Source: a virus. From it: a stretch of 64,000 nt of DNA. The stretch is from IMG/VR virus record IMGVR_UViG_3300045988_124424, positions 1-64,000 of that record; one strand, given 5' to 3'. Shown here one piece after another: positions 16,999 through 47,438 of the stretch. The notes under the pieces were generated by a model. That model made no database searches and was not told the origin of the DNA. It worked only from the letters and a program-made list of their open reading frames with translations. Numbering within the stretch: the first letter of the stretch is position 1; each line of letters begins with the position of its first letter. The position numbers and the translations under genes were made by a program.

Positions 16999-17227
16999 GG
17001 CTGATGTAGTTTCCAACATAGCGCTTGTTGTGGCGATAATATCATTGCTTTCAGCAGGCGCTTTCCTTCTGATAGTGATTAAGACAGACGAGGTATCTAA
17101 ATTATTAATGAACGTACCTTATCTACTGGCTTCAGCGGGATTGTTCTTTTCAATAATATCATTATTATTCGAATGGAAAGCAAGGAAAAGAAGCTATACG
17201 TCTGCGAACGATGCGGACGAAAAGTGA
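16988..17227 (+). CDS. Small membrane protein (79 aa, two predicted TM helices).
   Basis: Hydrophobic stretches VVSNIALVVAIISLLSAGAFLLIVI and LLASAGLFFSIISLLF. Confidence 0.5.
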   Translation: MKSKADVVSNIALVVAIISLLSAGAFLLIVIKTDEVSKLLMNVPYLLASAGLFFSIISLLFEWKARKRSYTSANDADEK

Positions 17228-17694
17228 TGATAAGAAGTCGCGGCTTATGCCAGGCTTGCAGGAGCAAAGAGTTGACTCCGAAGAAAAAAAACAGAATTAC
17301 ATCCATTAAAAACAGCAGCAAGAAGAAAAAGTTAGAGAGCCCGGATTTATCCGGGTTTTTTTGTCTTATGCTGGAAGAGCTGAATAGTATTCGGATGTCT
17401 ATGACTGGTAGGGCTATCCATTTTCCTACAGTATGTAACGTATGTCACATACTTCCAAAAAGGATATATAAGTCGGTTGCCACTTGCAGAGATAATATAG
17501 TTTTCCTTCATGAATCGGAGCATACGGTATTCGACATGTATCTTGACCGGATGGAATTTGATAAACTTGAAACAGAATTTCCTTTTGTATGGAAGTATGC
17601 GGTAAAGAAGGTATTGGATATGGAAAGCAGGGGAATGATTAAAGAAAGAGGTAGGTTGATTATTGAAATAATTGACAGGTATAACCCCAAATAG
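17173..17694 (+). CDS. Zinc-finger / HNH-like endonuclease candidate (173 aa).
   Basis: N-terminal CxxC...CxxC. Central CNVCH...DN...LHESEH could be an H-N-H arrangement. The last about 6 codons (DRYNPK*) lie inside the repeat family and are duplicated at 27.73 kb. Confidence 0.45.
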   Translation: MESKEKKLYVCERCGRKVMIRSRGLCQACRSKELTPKKKNRITSIKNSSKKKKLESPDLSGFFCLMLEELNSIRMSMTGRAIHFPTVCNVCHILPKRIYKSVATCRDNIVFLHESEHTVFDMYLDRMEFDKLETEFPFVWKYAVKKVLDMESRGMIKERGRLIIEIIDRYNPK

Positions 17695-18047
17695 TATTAA
17701 CCCAATATAATTCTATTATAAAAGTTTAATACATCTCTTTCAGAGATCGGGTTATTAGCCTAAGCCTTGAAACGAAGGCTACGTTATTTGAGAATAGATA
17801 GTTACCAAGGAATGTTTATCCAAGTTTCTTGCTCTAAGGATGGTGATTAAACAGGAGTAGTGTATTTGACGAAACAGTGTTGCCATTATATAAAACCTCT
17901 TATAACATTGGCGATGGGTACTTACAGGAGAAATCATGACTTATCCCTAACGGGATTTACATCTACCAAGGAGACCGAAAGGTCTCCGAGGGGATGTATT
18001 AAAACATACGAATAGCTTTAAATATATTTAATAGAATATGGGATATG
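17678..18047 (+). repeat. Intergenic structured repeat R-A, the longest copy.
   Basis: Homologous to 27730-27939 (direct orientation) and to 47133-47335 (inverted). Contains hairpins ATCTCT-TTC-AGAGAT, GCCTT-GAAACG-AAGGC and GGAGACC-GAAA-GGTCTCC. Carries a 134-bp block, flanked by TACCAAGGA direct repeats, that is absent from R-B. Confidence 0.85.
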
Positions 18048-18218
18048 AGAAAAAAATATAAGGTTACGATAGAAGCTGACGATGAAGTTATTTTCATTGC
18101 CAACATAAAAAGAGGAGATAGCGAGAGATTGATTGATTTTGAGAGAGCGGCCGCAGATATTGATGAGGCTGTAACTGTGTTGTATTATGTTAAAGAGGAA
18201 TTAATTGAGAAATTGAGA
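18039..18218 (+). CDS. Hypothetical small protein (59 aa, MGYEKKYKV...).
   Basis: The ORF starts inside the conserved end of R-A. It is below the ORF-track cutoff. Confidence 0.35.
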
Positions 18219-19531
18219 TGATAGAAGAAAAGATTAAAATATTAACAGATTTAGGGTTTGTCCCTATGGTGGAAGGAGTAGAAAATACGTTGTTTAGAAT
18301 GAACGATGTTGTGATGTCGGTGTCAGATCCTAATCAAACACCGGAGCAATTGAGAAAGGAAGTTATGTCTTTAATAAAAAACAAAGATATAGCAGAAAGA
18401 GGCGGACGGGTTCCAGTAGTTAAAGAGCCTGAGCCAGAGCAGGCCCAGGGAGAAGAACCGGAAGCTCCGGCAGAGGAAGCAGATCCTAACCCTGGAGAGG
18501 AAGATTCGAATCCGTTTACAGAAAATCAAGAAACGTTAGAGCCGTTTTATATCTGCGATGAGTTGAAGAAGATTGAGACTCCCAAATTCGTAAGATTGAC
18601 ATTAGACGATAATCGTTTTTATGTAAGGAAGATGGATGATGGAACGGCCAAGATATATGCTTCGGTAACAACTTTAATCAAAGATGGGTATGTAGATGAT
18701 AAGACCGCACTTCAGGAATGGAAGCAAGAGATGAAGATGCTTGGTCGCAATCCGGAAGAGGTGGCACAGTATGAAGCCGACAGGGGAACGATCATGCACT
18801 ATCTGTACGGATTGTACCTAACAGGTAGAGATATGGTCTTAAATCGAAGCTTTGTAGTTAAGACAGTGCAAGAAGGCAAGCTGAAAATATCTAAGAAAAA
18901 TCTTGATCGGTTTTTTAACAGTATTGATGATCTTGATGATATGATTGTCAGAATTATGAAGTTTGCCAAATTTTGTTCAGAGTATAAGGTTAAGCCGATG
19001 ATGATTGAAAGAATATTGTCATTAGAAGACTATTTAGTAGCTACGCCGATAGATGCGATGGTTAAAATGACATTCAAATACAAAGAAGAAGGTTATTTTG
19101 GAGCCGTGTATCAAAGGGCTACAGGGCAGTTTAAAAAAGGTGATCCGAAGAAGGAGGTAAGAGACGTGGAGAAGGAAGAAGTGGTTATTCTCGACTTTAA
19201 ATCAGGGGGAATATGGGAATCATACGCATTTCAATTAGAAGCTGAAAGAAGAATGGTTAAAGCATGGTATGGGATTGATGCACGTATTATGAACTTTTCT
19301 CCAAAAAGCACGAGCAGCAAAGGATATACGTTGAAAGAATGGACAGAAGACAGTATAGCACTTGAAAAGGCGGACTGCGTGTTCCAACAAGGTATGTTGA
19401 ATCACCTTAGAAAAGATAAGAAGTTCAAAGTGAGAAAAGGAGTGCTGAATATCAATAAGCCGTACAATGAAGAGGATCATACGGTCGTGTATGATATTGC
19501 AGAGGAAATGTCTAAAAGATTCATAATATGA
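18218..19531 (+). CDS. Protein with a C-terminal PD-(D/E)XK (RecB / lambda-exo / YqaJ-like) nuclease domain (437 aa).
   Basis: Motifs SVTTLIKDGY, ATPIDAMVK, VVILDFKSGG (DxK) and FQLEAERRM (QxxxY). A Pro/Glu-rich linker lies in the N-terminal third. Confidence 0.55.
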   Translation: MIEEKIKILTDLGFVPMVEGVENTLFRMNDVVMSVSDPNQTPEQLRKEVMSLIKNKDIAERGGRVPVVKEPEPEQAQGEEPEAPAEEADPNPGEEDSNPFTENQETLEPFYICDELKKIETPKFVRLTLDDNRFYVRKMDDGTAKIYASVTTLIKDGYVDDKTALQEWKQEMKMLGRNPEEVAQYEADRGTIMHYLYGLYLTGRDMVLNRSFVVKTVQEGKLKISKKNLDRFFNSIDDLDDMIVRIMKFAKFCSEYKVKPMMIERILSLEDYLVATPIDAMVKMTFKYKEEGYFGAVYQRATGQFKKGDPKKEVRDVEKEEVVILDFKSGGIWESYAFQLEAERRMVKAWYGIDARIMNFSPKSTSSKGYTLKEWTEDSIALEKADCVFQQGMLNHLRKDKKFKVRKGVLNINKPYNEEDHTVVYDIAEEMSKRFII

Positions 19532-25857: not shown

Positions 25858-27558
25858 ATGACAACAATCATGTACGTGTCAGCTATTTTAGCTGTAGTGA
25901 TTATTTTGACAATCATCGGAGTCTTATCAAGGTATCGTAGATGTAAGCCTAATCAAGTCTTGGTCGTTTATGGTAAGACAGGTGGGGAAAAGAAATCGGC
26001 GAAATTATATCATGGTGGAGCGGCATTCGTCTTGCCTATTATTCAAAGCTATGATATTTTGTCTATGGAGCCTATGCAAATAGATTGTAGGCTCACCGGT
26101 GCTTTGTCGTCTCAAAATATCAGAGTGGATGTACCTACTACTATTACAGTAGCAATCAGCACAAATCCTGAAATTATGCAGAATGCAGCAGAAAGGCTTT
26201 TGGGGATGGATACTGAATCTACTGAAAATCTTATTACGGATATTGTTTATGGCCAAATGCGTTTGATCATTGCTGAAATGACGATTGAAAAACTTAATTC
26301 TGACAGGGATGAGTTTTTGGATAAGGCAAGAAAAAACATTGATAACGAACTTAATAAGTTAGGCCTTTACCTCCTAAATATCAACATCAGTGACATCAGA
26401 GACGAAGCCGGCTATATCATGAATCTTGGCAAAGAAGCTGAAAGTAAGGCCCTGAACGAAGCACAGGCTAATATCGAAGAACAGGAAAAGCTGGGTGCTA
26501 TTAAGATTGCTGTACAGCAAAAGGAAAAAGAAACGGCTGTAGCTAATACCCAAAAAGAGCAAGAGATTCAAATTGCCTATACTGAAAAAGAAAAGGAAAC
26601 GGTAGTAGCTGAAACAAAGAAAGAAAAAGAAGTAGCTTTGGCTTTAACCGATAAAGAAAAACAGATCGGTGTAGCTCAAGCCGATAGAGATAGGGCTGCG
26701 GTTATTGCAAAGACTTTGGCTGATAAGGAATCAGCGATCGCAAAATCTAAGGCAGAACTTGAAGTAAATAAAGCCGAGGCTGAAAGGATGGAAGAAGTCG
26801 GAAAGAACAAGGCTGAAGCTGACAAGGAAGCAGCTATAGCAATACAAAACTCTGAAGCTCAGATTAAGAAGGCTGAGGCTGAGAAAAATGCTTCTGTGGG
26901 CTACAACAATGCCCAGAAAGAGGTTGCTGTATCAGAATCAGAATTGCAGGTTATCAAAGCTCAATCAGAAAAGAAAGCCGGAGAAGAGAAAGTTAAATCG
27001 GAAGCGGCTGTGAAAACGGCAAAAGAGCTTGCTGATAAAGAAGTGGAAGAAGCTAAAGCTAAGAAGGTTCAAGCTGCGCTTAAAGCTGAAAAGATTGTGC
27101 CGGCTGAAATTCAGAAGCAGGAGGCTATGTTGCAAGCTGATGCTGAAGCTGAGAAGATCAAACGCCGGGCTGATGCCGAAGCAGCAGCACATTTGGCAAA
27201 AGCTGAGGCAGAGGCAAAAGCTATTCAGATGAAGCTGGAGGCAGAAGCCGAAGGTAAGAAAAAGTCGTTAATGGCAGAAGCCGACGGATTTAAGGCTATG
27301 GTGGAAGCAGCAGAATCCAATCCTCAGATCGCCATCCAGTACAAGATGGTTAATCAGTGGAAAGAAATTGCTGGAGAACAGGTTAAAGCATTTGAGCACA
27401 TTAATCTCGGAAATATCACGGTATTTGACGGCGGTCAGAACAGTACCGGTAATTTCCTTAACAATGTTGTCAAGACCGTCGCTCCGGCATTGGGAGTCAT
27501 TGATCAGCTTCCGATTGCAGATACTTTAAAGAAATTAAAAGGAGATGACAAAAAATAA
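25858..27558 (+). CDS. SPFH / band-7 / flotillin-like protein with a long Glu/Ala/Lys coiled-coil C-terminus (566 aa).
   Basis: N-terminal TM helix, an SPFH-like core (VLVVYGKTGG...FVLPIIQSYDILSMEP) and an EA-rich repeat region typical of flotillin/YqiK-like proteins. Confidence 0.65.
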   Translation: MTTIMYVSAILAVVIILTIIGVLSRYRRCKPNQVLVVYGKTGGEKKSAKLYHGGAAFVLPIIQSYDILSMEPMQIDCRLTGALSSQNIRVDVPTTITVAISTNPEIMQNAAERLLGMDTESTENLITDIVYGQMRLIIAEMTIEKLNSDRDEFLDKARKNIDNELNKLGLYLLNINISDIRDEAGYIMNLGKEAESKALNEAQANIEEQEKLGAIKIAVQQKEKETAVANTQKEQEIQIAYTEKEKETVVAETKKEKEVALALTDKEKQIGVAQADRDRAAVIAKTLADKESAIAKSKAELEVNKAEAERMEEVGKNKAEADKEAAIAIQNSEAQIKKAEAEKNASVGYNNAQKEVAVSESELQVIKAQSEKKAGEEKVKSEAAVKTAKELADKEVEEAKAKKVQAALKAEKIVPAEIQKQEAMLQADAEAEKIKRRADAEAAAHLAKAEAEAKAIQMKLEAEAEGKKKSLMAEADGFKAMVEAAESNPQIAIQYKMVNQWKEIAGEQVKAFEHINLGNITVFDGGQNSTGNFLNNVVKTVAPALGVIDQLPIADTLKKLKGDDKK

Positions 27559-27697
27559 ATACAATGGCCCAAGGTTACACTTGGGCCTAATTGAAGAAAT
27601 AAAAGCAGCATTCATAGATTTCCTGCCTGCGGGAACAGTGATTTTAAGTGCTTTACTAATTACGATATTTTTAACATGGATTTTGGACAAGATTTAG
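27545..27697 (+). CDS. Possible small single-TM protein (50 aa).
   Basis: ORF MTKNKYNG...GTVILSALLITIFLTWILDKI, overlapping the flotillin stop. Not in the ORF track. Confidence 0.25.
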   Translation: MTKNKYNGPRLHLGLIEEIKAAFIDFLPAGTVILSALLITIFLTWILDKI

Positions 27698-27747
27698 AAC
27701 CAGAAGAACTGACCGGGCATTATGATCGGTGTTATAACCCCAAATAG
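27676..27747 (+). pseudogene. Remnant ORF (23 aa) ending DRCYNPK*, matching the C-terminal end of the HNH-like gene 17173-17694.
   Basis: The shared TATAACCCCAAATAG terminus lies inside the repeat family. Confidence 0.35.
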
Positions 27748-27939
27748 TATTAACCCAATATAATTCTATTATAAAAGTTTAATACATCTCTTTCAGAGAT
27801 CGGGTTATTAGCCTAAGCCTTGAAACAGAGGCTACGTTATTTGAGAATAAATAGTTACCAAGGAGACCGGAAGGTCTCCGAGGGGATGTATTAAAACATA
27901 TGAATAGCTTTAAATATATTTAATAGAATATGAGATATG
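27730..27939 (+). repeat. Intergenic structured repeat R-B, a short copy lacking the 134-bp block.
   Basis: Near-identical to R-A over about 210 bp. Hairpin GGAGACC-GGAA-GGTCTCC (the tetraloop differs from R-A). Stem GCCTT/GAGGC retains a G-U pair. Confidence 0.85.
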
Positions 27940-28284
27940 GAATTGATTTTGAAACAGAAGAAGAGGAGGATGAAGAGTATGACTGACGAGGAATTTGTAT
28001 TGGATAATAAGAAAAAGATTATAGTAAGAAAAAGAATATCTTATTTAAACAAAGGGGATAAAGTGTGGATTGTGTCTTCCGACGGGTATCTGCTACACAC
28101 GGACGTGGTTAGAGCCGAACGCGGACGGTCTTATGTGGATATAGACGGTATCCTGTATTGGAAACGAGGATTAGATGGCAAGCATCGTAATCGTAATAAC
28201 TACATGCAGTTCGCCATGACGCCGGAGGACGGTAAGAAGTATGTCGTATATTACCCGGAAGGATTTAAAGACAATGACTTATGA
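27937..28284 (+). CDS. Hypothetical basic protein (115 aa).
   Basis: The ORF starts inside the conserved end of R-B. Confidence 0.5.
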   Translation: MELILKQKKRRMKSMTDEEFVLDNKKKIIVRKRISYLNKGDKVWIVSSDGYLLHTDVVRAERGRSYVDIDGILYWKRGLDGKHRNRNNYMQFAMTPEDGKKYVVYYPEGFKDNDL

Positions 28285-32613: not shown

Positions 32614-33180
32614 ATGGAAAAAATGGACAATAATACTAAAAACATCCTTTATCCAAAAGGATCTATTTTTCAAACACTGAAAGATGATAAGATAGATAAA
32701 AACACTATAATATACAAAGGATCTTTAGTGACTTCAGCAACAAACATAAAAGAAAATGACAAGTTTGCTGAAGTTTATTACAATGGAGACGCAATTATTA
32801 TAGAAACAGACATTATGGAACTTATTCGTGTAGGAGATCCAGAAAAAAGTACTTCAATAAAATCAGTGAAAAATGACATCATTGACGACAAACTACGATG
32901 GGATTTGCTTCCGATGGAAGAAATTGAGGACATTGTAAAAGTCTATCATGCCGGAGCCAAAAAATATGGGTCTAATAATTGGCAGAATCTTGACAACGGA
33001 TTTGAGCGGTATCGAGCTGCAATGTTTCGACACCTGATGAAATACATGAAAGGAGAAAGAGTGGATTCCGATACAGGATGTTTTCATCTTGCACAATGTG
33101 CATGGAACTGCATAGCTATGCTGTGGTATGACAAGCATGGAAAAGGGTTGATACCATTAAATAAGGAGGAAAAGAAATGA
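32614..33180 (+). CDS. Possible MazG-like / dNTP pyrophosphohydrolase-like protein (188 aa).
   Basis: Segment RWDLLPMEEIEDIVKVYHAGAKKYGSNNWQN...FERYRAAMFRHL is reminiscent of all-alpha NTP-pyrophosphatase domains found in phages. Assignment is from memory of the family only. Confidence 0.3.
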   Translation: MEKMDNNTKNILYPKGSIFQTLKDDKIDKNTIIYKGSLVTSATNIKENDKFAEVYYNGDAIIIETDIMELIRVGDPEKSTSIKSVKNDIIDDKLRWDLLPMEEIEDIVKVYHAGAKKYGSNNWQNLDNGFERYRAAMFRHLMKYMKGERVDSDTGCFHLAQCAWNCIAMLWYDKHGKGLIPLNKEEKK

Positions 33181-33485
33181 CAATAGAACAACTAAATTAT
33201 TTATTAAGAAAAGAGCTTTATGCTATAAAAAAACATAAAGACAATATTGATAGAATCAAAAAAGAATATTTTGATTCCAATTATGGGTTAAAAGAAGGAG
33301 ATAAGATCCGTATTTTACACGAAACAGGAGATGAAATGATAGGCTTCTTGAAAAAAGTTGAAGTATGTGAAGACGGAGATCTGTACTTGACAATCCAAAA
33401 ACAAAACGAAAAAGGTGACAAAGGCAGAGGAACATGGAATATGTATCTATCATCAAAATCAATTAAAATTGAAAAATGTGTATAA
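33177..33485 (+). CDS. Hypothetical protein (102 aa).
   Basis: ORF. Confidence 0.5.
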   Translation: MTIEQLNYLLRKELYAIKKHKDNIDRIKKEYFDSNYGLKEGDKIRILHETGDEMIGFLKKVEVCEDGDLYLTIQKQNEKGDKGRGTWNMYLSSKSIKIEKCV

Positions 33486-33489
33486 TGTC

Positions 33490-34668
33490 ATGAGAGTGTT
33501 AAGTTTATTTGACGGAATGTCATGTGGTCAAATAGCGTTAAAAGAAATAGGGATCACGCCTGAAGTATATTATGCGTCAGAAATAGATAAGTTCGCTATT
33601 AAACAAACGCAATTAAATTTTCCTAATACGATACAAGTAGGAGATGTGAGGGATTTAAATGTAGAAGATCTTGGACGCATAGATCTTATTTTAGCCGGCA
33701 GCCCATGTACGGATATGTCTTTTTCTGGAAAAAGAAAAGGGTTGTCTACCGTAGAAGGAATAGAAGTCAAATCACTTAATGAGTATCTTGAATTAAAAAA
33801 ACAAGGATTTGAGTTTGCCGGTCAGTCTTACTTGTTCTGGGAGTTTATTCGTATTTTGAATGATGTAAGAAAAACTAATCCTGATGTGTTGTTTCTTCTT
33901 GAGAACGTTAAGATGGGAAAGAAATGGGAGCCGGTATTCGATGATGCTATAGGGTGTAAGGGCAATCATATTAATTCAGCACTTGTTTCAGCTCAAGTCA
34001 GGAAACGTATTTATTGGACTAATATTCAAGACGGCATTATTCCTCAACCTGAAGACGAAGGTTTGACCATAAGTGATATAGCTGAATATGAAGTAGATGA
34101 AAAATATTACTTATCTGAAAAAGTTTTAAACAATTTAGCTTTTCACTTAAAAAGAAATCACGACAAGGGAAATTATTATGGAGCTAATATTAAAACAAAA
34201 GATGAAAAATCCAATACTGTTACCGTAAAGGGTAAATACACGTACGATCTTATTTGTGTAGCAATGAGAGGTAGGAATCCAGAAAAACCTACATGTAGAG
34301 AATCTGGTCTTAAAACAGTTCAGATGATTGAATTTAAAAACGATAGAAAATCCAATTGTCCCACAACAGTTCAGAAAGATAATCTTATTTTCCAAATACC
34401 AAGAGGATTTAACAAAGGTGGATTTCATGAAGATAAGGCTCCAACATTATCTTGTAATTCATATGATAGAAACAATTTTATCATACAGAGAGCATTACAT
34501 GGCGATTTCAGAATAAGAAGATTAACCCCTACAGAGTGCTCCAGGTTACAGACTGTACCAGATTGGTATAAATGGGAATGCAGCGAAACCCAACAGTACA
34601 AGATGTTGGGAAACGGGTGGACTATTAAAGTTATTGAACATATACTTAAAAGAATAAAAGAATCATGA
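33490..34668 (+). CDS. DNA (cytosine-5)-methyltransferase (about 392 aa).
   Basis: C5-MTase motifs: I LFDGMSCG, IV GSPCTDMSFSG, VI LLENV, VIII QVRKRIYW and X RLQTVPDWY...LGNGWT. The start is chosen at the internal ATG (MRVLSLFDG). Confidence 0.85.
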   Translation: MRVLSLFDGMSCGQIALKEIGITPEVYYASEIDKFAIKQTQLNFPNTIQVGDVRDLNVEDLGRIDLILAGSPCTDMSFSGKRKGLSTVEGIEVKSLNEYLELKKQGFEFAGQSYLFWEFIRILNDVRKTNPDVLFLLENVKMGKKWEPVFDDAIGCKGNHINSALVSAQVRKRIYWTNIQDGIIPQPEDEGLTISDIAEYEVDEKYYLSEKVLNNLAFHLKRNHDKGNYYGANIKTKDEKSNTVTVKGKYTYDLICVAMRGRNPEKPTCRESGLKTVQMIEFKNDRKSNCPTTVQKDNLIFQIPRGFNKGGFHEDKAPTLSCNSYDRNNFIIQRALHGDFRIRRLTPTECSRLQTVPDWYKWECSETQQYKMLGNGWTIKVIEHILKRIKES

Positions 34669-36871: not shown

Positions 36872-37795
36872 ATGTTCGATTTTAAATCACTTCCTGAATT
36901 TTCAAAATTGTTCCCTGATGAGCAAGCGTGTATAGCCTTTCTTGAAAAAGAAAGGTGGGGAGATCACGTTGTTTCTCCTTTTGATCCGGAATCTAAGGTG
37001 TATAAATGCAAAGGAAATAGATACAAGTGTGAAAATACGGGTAAATATTTCAATGTTCGTACAGGAACGATTTTTGAAAATTCGAAAGTCTCATTACGAA
37101 AATGGATGTTGGCTTGTTATTTTGTTGTTGAAATGAAAAGAGGAGTATCATCTTTACAGTTGTCTAAAATCGTGGGAGTAACACAGAAAACGGCTTGGTT
37201 TATGCTTCAACGTATTCACAATTGTTTTAATATTGAAATAAAAGAGCCGTGTTTGAAAGGCGAGATTGAAGTGGATGAAACTTATATTGGTGGCAAAAAC
37301 AAGAATAGACATAGTAAGGATAAAATTAAAGATGCACAGGGGAGATCTTTAAAAGATAAAACCCCTGTGTTTGGGACACTCCAACGAGAAGGATTTGTTG
37401 TCGCTTATGTCGTTACAGACACAAAAGGTAAAACCTTACTTCCTTTGATATACAATACCGTTCATCCTAATTCTACCATATATTCTGACGAATGGTATGC
37501 GTATAACGGGATCAACAAAGAAAAGTTTGATCATCAAAAAGTATATCACAAAAAGGGAACGTATGTAATAGGCAGAAGATCAACAAACACAATCGAAGGA
37601 TATTGGAGCCATTTGAAGAAAATGATTTCTGGAACCCATTTCTGGGTGTCGAGAAAACATCTTCAAAGATATGTAGATTGCGAATCTTTCAGATATAACA
37701 CGAAACATCTATCGGAATCTGAAAGATTCGATGTATTTTTGCAGAATACCAAACGACGATTAAGGTATTCACAACTAAAGAAAATTACGGCATGA
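36872..37795 (+). CDS. IS1595-family (ISXO2-like) transposase with an N-terminal zinc-ribbon (307 aa).
   Basis: N-terminal Cys/His ribbon (CIAFLEKERWGDHVVSP...CKGNRYKCENTGKYFNV) followed by a DDE-type core (EVDETYIGGK...YSDEWYAYNG...GYWSHLKK). Confidence 0.75.
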   Translation: MFDFKSLPEFSKLFPDEQACIAFLEKERWGDHVVSPFDPESKVYKCKGNRYKCENTGKYFNVRTGTIFENSKVSLRKWMLACYFVVEMKRGVSSLQLSKIVGVTQKTAWFMLQRIHNCFNIEIKEPCLKGEIEVDETYIGGKNKNRHSKDKIKDAQGRSLKDKTPVFGTLQREGFVVAYVVTDTKGKTLLPLIYNTVHPNSTIYSDEWYAYNGINKEKFDHQKVYHKKGTYVIGRRSTNTIEGYWSHLKKMISGTHFWVSRKHLQRYVDCESFRYNTKHLSESERFDVFLQNTKRRLRYSQLKKITA

Positions 37796-46814: not shown

Positions 46815-47156
46815 TTACCTTTCATGAATTATTTGTTTAAAAAGACCAATTCCATCTATTATAATATGACCGCTTTGCATACGACCATTATTAGGATTGT
46901 GTAGAAAATTGAAACCACTTTCTTTTTCCTGTCTTTCAAAAGAACTGATATCCTTTCCTCTACGGGCTCTTTCAAAAGCTTTCTTGAACAACTTGCCTCT
47001 AAAGGTCTTGACGAGGATCTTGGTAGCGTTATTGCCGGCTTTTACCATTGCTTTCCTTGCCTGGTCCTCCGAGACAAAACTGCTTCGGAAAATATACGAT
47101 GCTGCTGTTTGTATGTCCTGCTTGGTATTATTTAAGGTTTTATATAATGGCAACAC
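46815..47156 (-). CDS. Hypothetical basic protein (113 aa).
   Basis: ORF. Its first about 7 codons and upstream region are duplicated, truncated, inside R-A at 17.87 kb. Confidence 0.55.
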   Translation of the reverse strand: MLPLYKTLNNTKQDIQTAASYIFRSSFVSEDQARKAMVKAGNNATKILVKTFRGKLFKKAFERARRGKDISSFERQEKESGFNFLHNPNNGRMQSGHIIIDGIGLFKQIIHER

Positions 47157-47335
47157 TGTTTCGTCAAATACACTACTCCTGTTTAATCACCATCCTTAGG
47201 GCTACGGACTTGGGCAAACATCCGTAGGTAACTATCTATTCTCAAATAACGTAGCCTTCGTTTCAAGGCTTAGGCTAATATCCGGACCATTTATGGTACA
47301 TTAAAACCTTATAATGAAATTATATTGTTTTAATG
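47133..47335 (-). repeat. Intergenic structured repeat R-C, an inverted copy that is direct relative to minus-strand transcription.
   Basis: The reverse complement matches the R-A blocks (GCCTTGAAACGAAGGC...GATGGTGATTAAACAGGAGTAGTGTATTTGACGAAACAGTGTTGCCATTATATAAAACC). The upstream hairpin is replaced by the compensatory ACCAT-AA-ATGGT. Confidence 0.8.
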
Positions 47336-47438
47336 TTATTTCGGATATCAATATATTTACGTCAAACATACAGATATACTTTTTACCCCAATCGATTCTT
47401 TTTATCTTACGACCTAATTTAAGCCGTTCTAAAGCCTG

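Follow-up and report, generated by a model that had tools for sequence, protein, structure and literature searches.

Does the HNH-like gene at 17173–17694 of this viral DNA belong to a mobile cassette, or did something mobile land beside it? The question arises in a stretch of 64,000 nucleotides (nt), positions 1 to 64,000 of IMG/VR record IMGVR_UViG_3300045988_124424 (hereafter the window), in which the 3′ end of a gene for a 173-amino acid (aa) protein is shared with a repeat that recurs elsewhere. An earlier note, made from the sequence, had proposed that a free-standing homing endonuclease-type cassette moved together with, or was lost from, the repeat, leaving a fragment of the gene at the second copy. 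We find that the repeat is very probably a non-autonomous, gene-less relative of the palindrome-associated transposable elements (PATEs), derived from an IscB-type insertion sequence (IS) of the IS200/IS605 superfamily that lost iscB by internal deletion. IscB is the transposon ancestor of Cas9, and HEARO, or omega RNA, is its guide-RNA scaffold. The element appears to have kept the end that encodes this RNA together with ~100 nt of the opposite end, and to have reached the side of the HNH-like gene by chance, without joint movement of the two.

The last 15 nt of the 173-aa open reading frame (ORF), TATAACCCCAAATAG, occur exactly twice in the window (17680–17694 and 27733–27747) against 0.02 occurrences expected by chance, and none of 100 shuffles gave two. 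At both places this 15-mer opens a direct repeat (17680–17811 versus 27733–27864, 98% match), and a second block of similarity completes it (17964–18047 versus 27856–27939, 96% match). The ORF ends ...IIDRYNPK*, as had been reported, and its 3′ end is indeed part of the repeat; the boundary, previously placed within the last six or so codons, leaves four codons and the stop inside the repeat. The first copy (copy A) exceeds the second (copy B) by 161 nt, and the additional piece is located between two TACCAAGGA 9-mers. A third copy (copy C), which the earlier note did not list, is present on the opposite strand. Each of copies A and B runs right up to the start codon of the gene that follows, an ATG at 18045 for A and at 27937 for B. 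The positions of all of these features are collected in Table 1.

Comparison with csAssE-Sib, a 151-kb sister phage from the human gut and the only related record among annotated phages, reveals that the element is polymorphic in its presence, with precise junctions. Site A of csAssE-Sib reads ...ATTGACAGA TAT GAGAAAAC... (...GACAGA TAT GAGAAAA...), and the corresponding site of the window reads ...GACAGG TAT[AACCCC...GGGATAT]GAGAAAAA; the uninterrupted allele has the form TTGAAATAATTGACAG[A/G]T followed by ATGAG. In csAssE-Sib the gene at this position, annotated as 'NinG', overlaps its downstream neighbour directly, at the start of the latter, and no repeat separates the two. Site B is ...GATCAGTGT TAT GGAATTG... 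(...GTGT TAT GGAATTG...) in csAssE-Sib and ...GATCGGTGT TAT[AACCCC...GAGATAT]GGAATTG in the window, such that both sites are precisely empty in the sister phage. At site C, copy C stands in place of ~1 kb that is present in csAssE-Sib. A blastn search of csAssE-Sib with the element, set for distant matches, finds no copy, and a literature search under the name of this phage returned nothing. Each copy is bordered by the trinucleotide TAT at either end, and the empty site has a single TAT, which makes the junctions ambiguous by 3 nt and allows the boundaries of copy A to be moved by up to that distance. This arrangement fits either insertion without duplication, in which a transposon-encoded motif (TEM; here TTAT) resembles the target-adjacent motif (TAM), or a duplication of 2–3 bp.

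The empty sites refute the notion that the 173-aa gene is a homing-endonuclease cassette which travelled with the repeat and left a fragment of itself at the second copy, and we give that account almost no chance of being right. It drew on three genuine features of the locus: the HNH-like character of the gene, the overlap of its 3′ end with the repeat, and a short ORF of the same ending in front of copy B. However, the gene is present without the repeat in most homologues and, in the equivalent place, in csAssE-Sib, the C-termini of the homologues differ, and the repeat is found without the gene at sites B and C of the window and at two further sites in related contigs (D and E, below), at least three of these being beside unrelated genes. 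Nothing of the gene can be seen in the empty site B of csAssE-Sib, and it is the element that encodes the shared peptide YNPK*. Across related genomes, then, the 3′ end of the gene is not linked to the repeat.

The same comparison explains the 23-codon ORF in front of copy B. This ORF exists, and it ends DRCYNPK* with the same DNA terminus as the HNH-like gene, as described previously, although it does not appear to be a remnant. In the empty site B of csAssE-Sib its frame is already present and reads ...HYDQCYGIDFETEEEE. Within 30 nt the omega-RNA end of the element presents stop codons in each of the three frames, frame 0 giving YNPK*, so that any upstream frame entering the element is closed; this accounts both for the YNPK* tail of the HNH-like gene and for its 23-codon look-alike. 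The 'DR' that the two endings also share is written with different codons (GAC AGG versus GAT CGG), csAssE-Sib having CAG at the latter position, and we regard the resemblance as coincidental and in part the product of a recent CAG>CGG change. On the evidence of these alignments, the second copy never held the 173-aa gene and the short ORF is a chance frame.

The description of the gene itself as an HNH-like zinc-finger gene stands. Its product has an N-terminal CxxC...CxxC zinc ribbon, and residues H92, N108, and H117 are invariant in 25 aligned sequences of the family, as are C91, E116, and D121; the predicted fold is HNH-like. In profile searches, no Pfam HNH score exceeds the curated cut-off: 17 of the 25 family members touch HNH_2 (best E 5.6e-4, all under the cut-off), and the window protein itself has no Pfam HNH match. 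The NinG profile is absent from the Pfam matches (E<=1) of all 25, a PHROG search with the 173-aa protein gave no match, and a profile search of PDB sequences with the family returned zinc-ribbon noise only. The homologue in csAssE-Sib is 94% identical and occupies the same position. Approximately 49 homologues have other endings; close ones terminate in RYDRRKD, RYEKKI, or RYEKTL, and RYNPK is found only in contig L033, which bears the same insertion. Since the C-terminal residues are variable among homologues, the exchange of EKTL* for NPK* was probably harmless. The position of the gene is kept in both csAssE-Sib and L033, within a replication and recombination block that also encodes a DUF4494 protein, an exonuclease-like protein, a primase, and a DnaB-like helicase. 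We take the protein to be a resident nuclease that happens to sit upstream of a TAM.

The 173-aa protein resembles the free-standing HNH homing endonucleases of phages, and the lambda protein NinG (Rap), in being a small phage protein with an H-N-H motif, a predicted HNH-like fold, and a zinc ribbon at the N-terminus, encoded among replication and recombination genes. Unlike the former, its gene is fixed in position among relatives as opposed to sporadic, and is unlinked to the repeat; it differs from the NinG and HNH families in lacking a Pfam match to either above threshold, and its nuclease activity is a prediction. The 'NinG' coding sequence of csAssE-Sib (L001 3243–3713) was annotated from the residue equivalent to M19. 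A start at M19 would lose the invariant zinc-ribbon residues C11 and C14, such that the longer start of the window ORF is probably the real one. This start gives the ORF an overlap of 55 nt with the 79-aa membrane-protein ORF before it. Small HNH-only relatives of IscB exist, and on their model we also considered the HNH-like protein as the partner of the HEARO RNA. This was rejected: the RNA is downstream and not upstream of the gene, the pairing is seen in two contigs only, and the gene is normally found without the RNA.

What the repeat encodes is apparent from an Rfam scan of the whole window, in which the single match above the gathering score is HEARO (RF02033) in copy A (95.4 bits versus a gathering score of 83, E 3e-18). 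The match spans the full model (1–211 of 211) and starts within one base of the repeat boundary. Copy C scores 66.1 bits (E 4e-13), under the gathering score, and copy B, from which the 3′ half of the RNA is gone, has no Rfam match even at E<=10. Copy A alone in the window appears to keep a near-complete omega RNA, and copies B and C have the character of dead relics. The ~16 nt of phage DNA directly 5′ of the scaffold in copy A would be the guide, judging by the start of the HEARO match and by the IscB biology described by Meers et al. Even in copy A the terminal hairpin is imperfect: base 17936 is A where relatives have C, a change that costs one base pair and introduces a spurious ATG. Among 33 gene-less copies compared, only copy A and its counterpart in contig L020 have this hairpin broken. 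We considered whether the segment AGGAGAAATCATGACTTATCCCTAA (17926–17950) could be a Shine-Dalgarno sequence with a decayed iscB start; this candidate was rejected, as relatives have the hairpin CAGGA-GAAA-TCCTG at this position and copy A differs by the C>A change.

Table 1. Features of the locus and of the other repeat copies, with their positions in the window (LE, left end; RE, right end).
Feature	Position	Strand	Remarks
Resident phage gene, zinc ribbon plus HNH-like nuclease (predicted), 173 aa	17173..17694	+	last 4 codons and stop (YNPK*) supplied by inserted element
Predicted guide segment of copy-A omega RNA	17665..17680	+	~16 nt of phage flank directly 5′ of scaffold
Copy A, gene-less IscB-type element, 364 nt	17681..18044	+	site empty in csAssE-Sib
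HEARO/IscB omega-RNA scaffold, 245 nt	17681..17925	+	RF02033
9-mers TACCAAGGA	17803..17811 and 17964..17972	+	end points of the 161-nt deletion of copy B
Terminal omega-RNA hairpin	17925..17938	+	CAGGA-GAAA-TCCTG in relatives
Far (LE-side) end of copy A	17939..18044	+	hairpins CCC-TAAC-GGG and GGAGACC-GAAA-GGTCTCC (17970–17987)
Downstream 58-aa gene	18045..18221	+	ATG(A), proposed TAM (YCAT on other strand), adjoins copy A
23-codon ORF ending DRCYNPK*	27676..27747	+	probably pre-existing flank frame running into element stop
Copy B, 203 nt, 161-nt internal deletion	27734..27936	+	3′ half of omega RNA removed
Downstream 115-aa gene	27937..28284	+	ATG(G) adjoins copy B
Copy C, diverged, 3′-truncated omega RNA	47127..47346	-	84.5% identity (blastn of copy A versus window)

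Covariation suggests that the omega RNA is under structural constraint. RNAalifold predicts 51 pairs from nine diverged phage copies, of which 17 show compensatory changes, and within the 33 gene-less copies two stems each exist as two fully compensated haplotypes with no broken pairs. Both ends of the element, including the last ~110 nt, are almost invariant among these 33. The interior of the site-A copy in L033 equals that of the other HEARO in the same contig, which suggests gene conversion; since conversion between copies is possible, we treat the covariation as suggestive of constraint and not as proof.

Complete IscB units are present in the same phage lineage and indicate where the gene-less element came from. 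Around site B, contig L046 shares the gene order of the window (flotillin, element, 115-aa gene, PD-(D/E)XK nuclease). A second HEARO (93.8 bits) lies just downstream, and 54 nt beyond it comes a gene for a 406-aa protein with Pfam RRXRR (1.5e-59) and HNH matches, that is, IscB. The gene-less element and the IscB-linked RNA of L046 align up to GACTTAT, past the terminal hairpin that they share. At the far end of the L046 unit (GAATAGATTTAATAAATTTAATAGAA...ATT/ATG, the slash marking the junction) the last ~40 nt are homologous to those of the gene-less element, copy A included, and both abut an ATG. The shared omega RNA and the homologous far ends point to the gene-less element as an internal-deletion derivative of an IscB unit. 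Hairpins are found near both ends of the element (ATCTCT/AGAGAT and GGAGACC/GGTCTCC) and are putative substrates for the transposase TnpA. The association of RNA and gene is general: a protein-based scan of IMG/VR recovered 339 IscB stretches, and of the best 80 of these, 76 have a related omega RNA 30–48 nt upstream of the IscB ATG. At least 13 of the 37 contigs that carry gene-less copies (below) also encode a full IscB. In the window we found no IscB, either by tblastn with an IscB query (E<=1) or by Pfam on the larger ORFs, and no Y1 TnpA (Y1_Tnp) match among ORFs of at least 120 aa.

Several loci outside the window illustrate other states of these units. Contig L033 (1704–2555 and 3731–4096) contains an intermediate in which a HEARO is followed by an internally deleted IscB, represented by a 59-aa N-terminal and a 152-aa C-terminal piece, at yet another site that is empty in the window. 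The environmental contigs L003, L005, and L007 (e.g. L007 4476–5525, minus strand) show the order HEARO, 158-aa ORF, second HEARO, IscB; the 158-aa ORF has no Pfam match, and one HEARO thus precedes a non-IscB gene. A 41% GC contig labelled Vibrio olivae (L051, NZ_JBHMEP010000019.1) encodes an IscB 87% identical to the gut-phage IscB and an omega RNA 83.5% identical to the element, and the unit is flanked at each side by a AACGCAAAAAGGAAAT-like string of ~17 nt; the contig probably represents phage or contaminant DNA within the assembly. Full-model HEARO matches were also obtained in Parabacteroides phage PF672P2 (L048 3451–3664, 130.4 bits), where no IscB-sized ORF is annotated nearby, and in MT838317 (L049 2420–2661, 89.4 bits), a record without annotation. 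The cultured Parabacteroides host of PF672P2 hints at a Bacteroidales host range for the element family, and by inference the host of the window phage is probably a member of the Bacteroidales. Exact-pattern scans with the central omega-RNA stem gave no match in IMG/VR or GTDB genomes; from JGI metagenomes they retrieved only GC-rich, distant, canonical HEARO-IscB loci, which we set aside as parents and used for comparison of architecture.

The gene-less element recurs across related gut-phage contigs. Searching IMG/VR with a 28-nt pattern from its right end recovered 38 loci on 37 contigs of 15–253 kb (mostly at least 80 kb), ~35 of which contain the full 367-nt element at 90–98% identity. 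The flanks define at least four distinct sites, namely A (window and L033), B (at least 24 contigs, all with full-length copies), D (7–8 contigs), and E (one contig); an exact search of the window for the flanks of D and E finds neither. Three of the site-B contigs (L023, L025, and L028) have different deletions of phage DNA directly upstream of the omega RNA. These deletions fall exactly at the guide position, such that the predicted guide would change.

At every site the right flank starts with G, giving the junction ...AT/G, and the ATG so formed opens a real, co-oriented ORF of 58, 115, 224, or 290 aa. Read on the omega-RNA strand, all sites are .../ATGR, which is YCAT on the LE strand (TCAT, CCAT, TCAT, and CCAT); the complete IscB unit has TTCAT there. 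These five sites fit YCAT as the candidate TAM, and insertion beside such a motif would place every copy directly 5′ of a start codon and in the orientation of its neighbour genes. The same geometry could be taken to mean that the element has been co-opted as an expression cassette which supplies a promoter, leader, or start-codon context to the downstream gene. Every copy does reach precisely to the start codon of a gene in its own orientation, and the nearly invariant last ~110 nt include an AT-rich tail with TAnnTTT-like motifs. Against this, the association with ATG is explained more simply by the YCAT/ATGR motif (compare the TTCAT TAM of GstIscB), and csAssE-Sib expresses the same genes with no element in front of them; we consider co-option unlikely.

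The TAT trinucleotides that flank each copy recall instead a miniature inverted-repeat transposable element (MITE) of a DDE transposon, with TA or TAT as its duplication, moved for instance by the IS1595-family transposase that the window encodes at 36872–37795. We judge this very improbable, because the termini are not inverted repeats (TATAACCCC... versus ...ATATCCCAT, the latter as reverse complement) and the body of the element is a HEARO RNA which in relatives is followed by IscB. IS1595 elements, moreover, produce 8-bp duplications.

The layout that we observe agrees with each of the points reported for IscB elements by Meers et al. (bioRxiv 10.1101/2023.03.14.532601): the transposon RE forms the boundary of the omega RNA; the TAM is next to the LE, with the sequence TTCAT in the case of GstIscB of Geobacillus; IscB elements share the orientation of the upstream gene; and tnpA is found nearby for only ~1.5% of iscB genes. 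PATEs encoding omega RNAs for use in trans were described in the same work. Copy A is like the HEARO/omega RNA family (RF02033) in matching the full model, in its pseudoknotted multi-stem architecture with covariation, in starting exactly at a mobile-element boundary with flanking DNA at the guide position, and in that relatives from the same lineage carry the RNA 30–54 nt upstream of an RRXRR plus HNH IscB gene. It departs from that family in that no IscB follows it, in its very AT-rich composition (34% GC), and in an additional 5′-region hairpin; of the three copies in the window, two are truncated, and IscB binding and guiding are predictions. The elements share with the PATEs of Meers et al. 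(2023) the absence of protein genes, the retention of both transposon ends with a guide-RNA scaffold, the occurrence at multiple sites, and the presumed need for nuclease and transposase in trans. Whereas the PATEs that need their nuclease in trans are of TnpB type and reside in a bacterial chromosome, those described here are of IscB type, inhabit large gut-phage genomes, and each stand at a start codon. The ISGst IscB element of Geobacillus stearothermophilus (TAM TTCAT) is similar in that the RE carries the omega RNA, an AT-rich TAM with a terminal CAT adjoins the LE, the orientation is that of the upstream gene, and no tnpA is linked. In contrast to that system, the TAM here is YCAT only, as read from the sequence of five sites, and the TEM would be TTAT.

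On this basis, a mechanism can be proposed. The element would insert beside the short YCAT motif (ATGR on the omega-RNA strand), and read-through transcription from the upstream gene would yield an omega RNA with a guide of ~16 nt of phage flank. IscB made in trans, whether by a different locus of the phage or by a relative infecting the same cell, could then form a ribonucleoprotein (RNP) that cuts genomes with the uninterrupted junction, in which the guide match is followed by ATGR. Recombinational repair would copy the element into the break, resulting in homing or retention, and jumps to new sites would need Y1 TnpA in trans.

A number of points weigh against the derivation of the repeat from an IscB-type insertion sequence and against this scheme. 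Transcription, RNP formation, cleavage, and homing are all carried over from published IscB/TnpB biology, and the subterminal hairpins are TnpA substrates only putatively. Copy A has a mutated terminal hairpin and a modest Rfam score, and copies B and C are clearly defective. No IscB gene directly follows any omega RNA in the window, and neither nuclease nor transposase is evident for this genome, of which 64 kb of probably ~150 kb are visible. Part of the compensated variation among the gene-less copies may come from gene conversion and not selection, and the TAT flanks may reflect a 2–3 bp target duplication, which is atypical for IS200/IS605.

The elements in this genome may equally be inert scars. 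That the element is now purely decaying junk, the mark of past invasions with all three copies inactive, is a serious possibility, although not one that we would expect to prove true. It would account for the lack of IscB and TnpA in the window, for the 161 nt missing from copy B, the truncation of copy C, and the broken terminal hairpin of copy A, and it accords with the decay of IscB seen within this lineage in L033. It sits less well with the presence of full-length IscB in no fewer than 13 of the 37 related contigs that bear a gene-less copy, and with the near-invariant ends and paired stems of the 33 copies, which speak for recent activity or constraint; the visible part of the genome is also less than half of its probable length. 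More speculatively, the gene-less omega-RNA copies could act as extra guides for a phage IscB encoded elsewhere in the ~150-kb genome, which would cut co-infecting relatives that lack the insertion, so that elements and their neighbour genes spread by homing or exclude competitors. We think this rather doubtful; if true, this would be an RNA-guided gene drive operating naturally between viruses, and the choice of start-codon junctions as targets would keep it from harming its carrier. In the literature that we found, omega-RNA-guided homing into co-infecting phages is treated as theoretical.

HEARO/omega RNAs are known already, as are IscB elements and gene-less PATEs. New here are their identification in this phage lineage, their abundance, the targeting of start codons, and the pairs of occupied and empty alleles; we found no paper describing these phage elements in a literature search of incomplete coverage. 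A group of large phages from the human gut is heavily colonised by elements of the OMEGA class (from obligate mobile element-guided activity), in complete, decayed-IscB, gene-less, and truncated forms, with insertion sites that are polymorphic between close relatives. The allele pairs, together with the predicted guides and the ATGR TAM, provide concrete substrates for testing OMEGA homing. The plausible but mistaken homing-endonuclease story gives way to a documented one, in which the repeats are miniature IscB/omega-RNA transposon copies and the shared peptide ending is the built-in stop codon of an element. Two warnings for annotation follow: short ORFs and altered gene ends beside such repeats are insertion artefacts, and an 'HNH-endonuclease-associated RNA' beside an unrelated HNH gene can be a coincidence.

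Other features of the window deserve brief mention. Just upstream of copy B, positions 25858–27558 (+) encode a 566-aa flotillin/SPFH (Band 7) protein that is conserved in csAssE-Sib and L046. The transposase gene at 36872–37795 (+) encodes an IS1595/ISXO2-like DDE enzyme (Pfam 2.8e-42) and represents a second, unrelated mobile element. A protein with a dATP/dGTP diphosphohydrolase N-terminal domain (MazZ-like, 2e-26; 32614–33180, +) is encoded beside a C5 cytosine DNA methyltransferase (33415–34668, +), and the pair may form a nucleotide-pool or DNA-modification module. Finally, positions 1–215 consist of approximately nine tandem units of 22 or 33 nt (AAATCCAATAGATAAGCGTTT(T)AAA...), which resemble iterons or terminal repeats.

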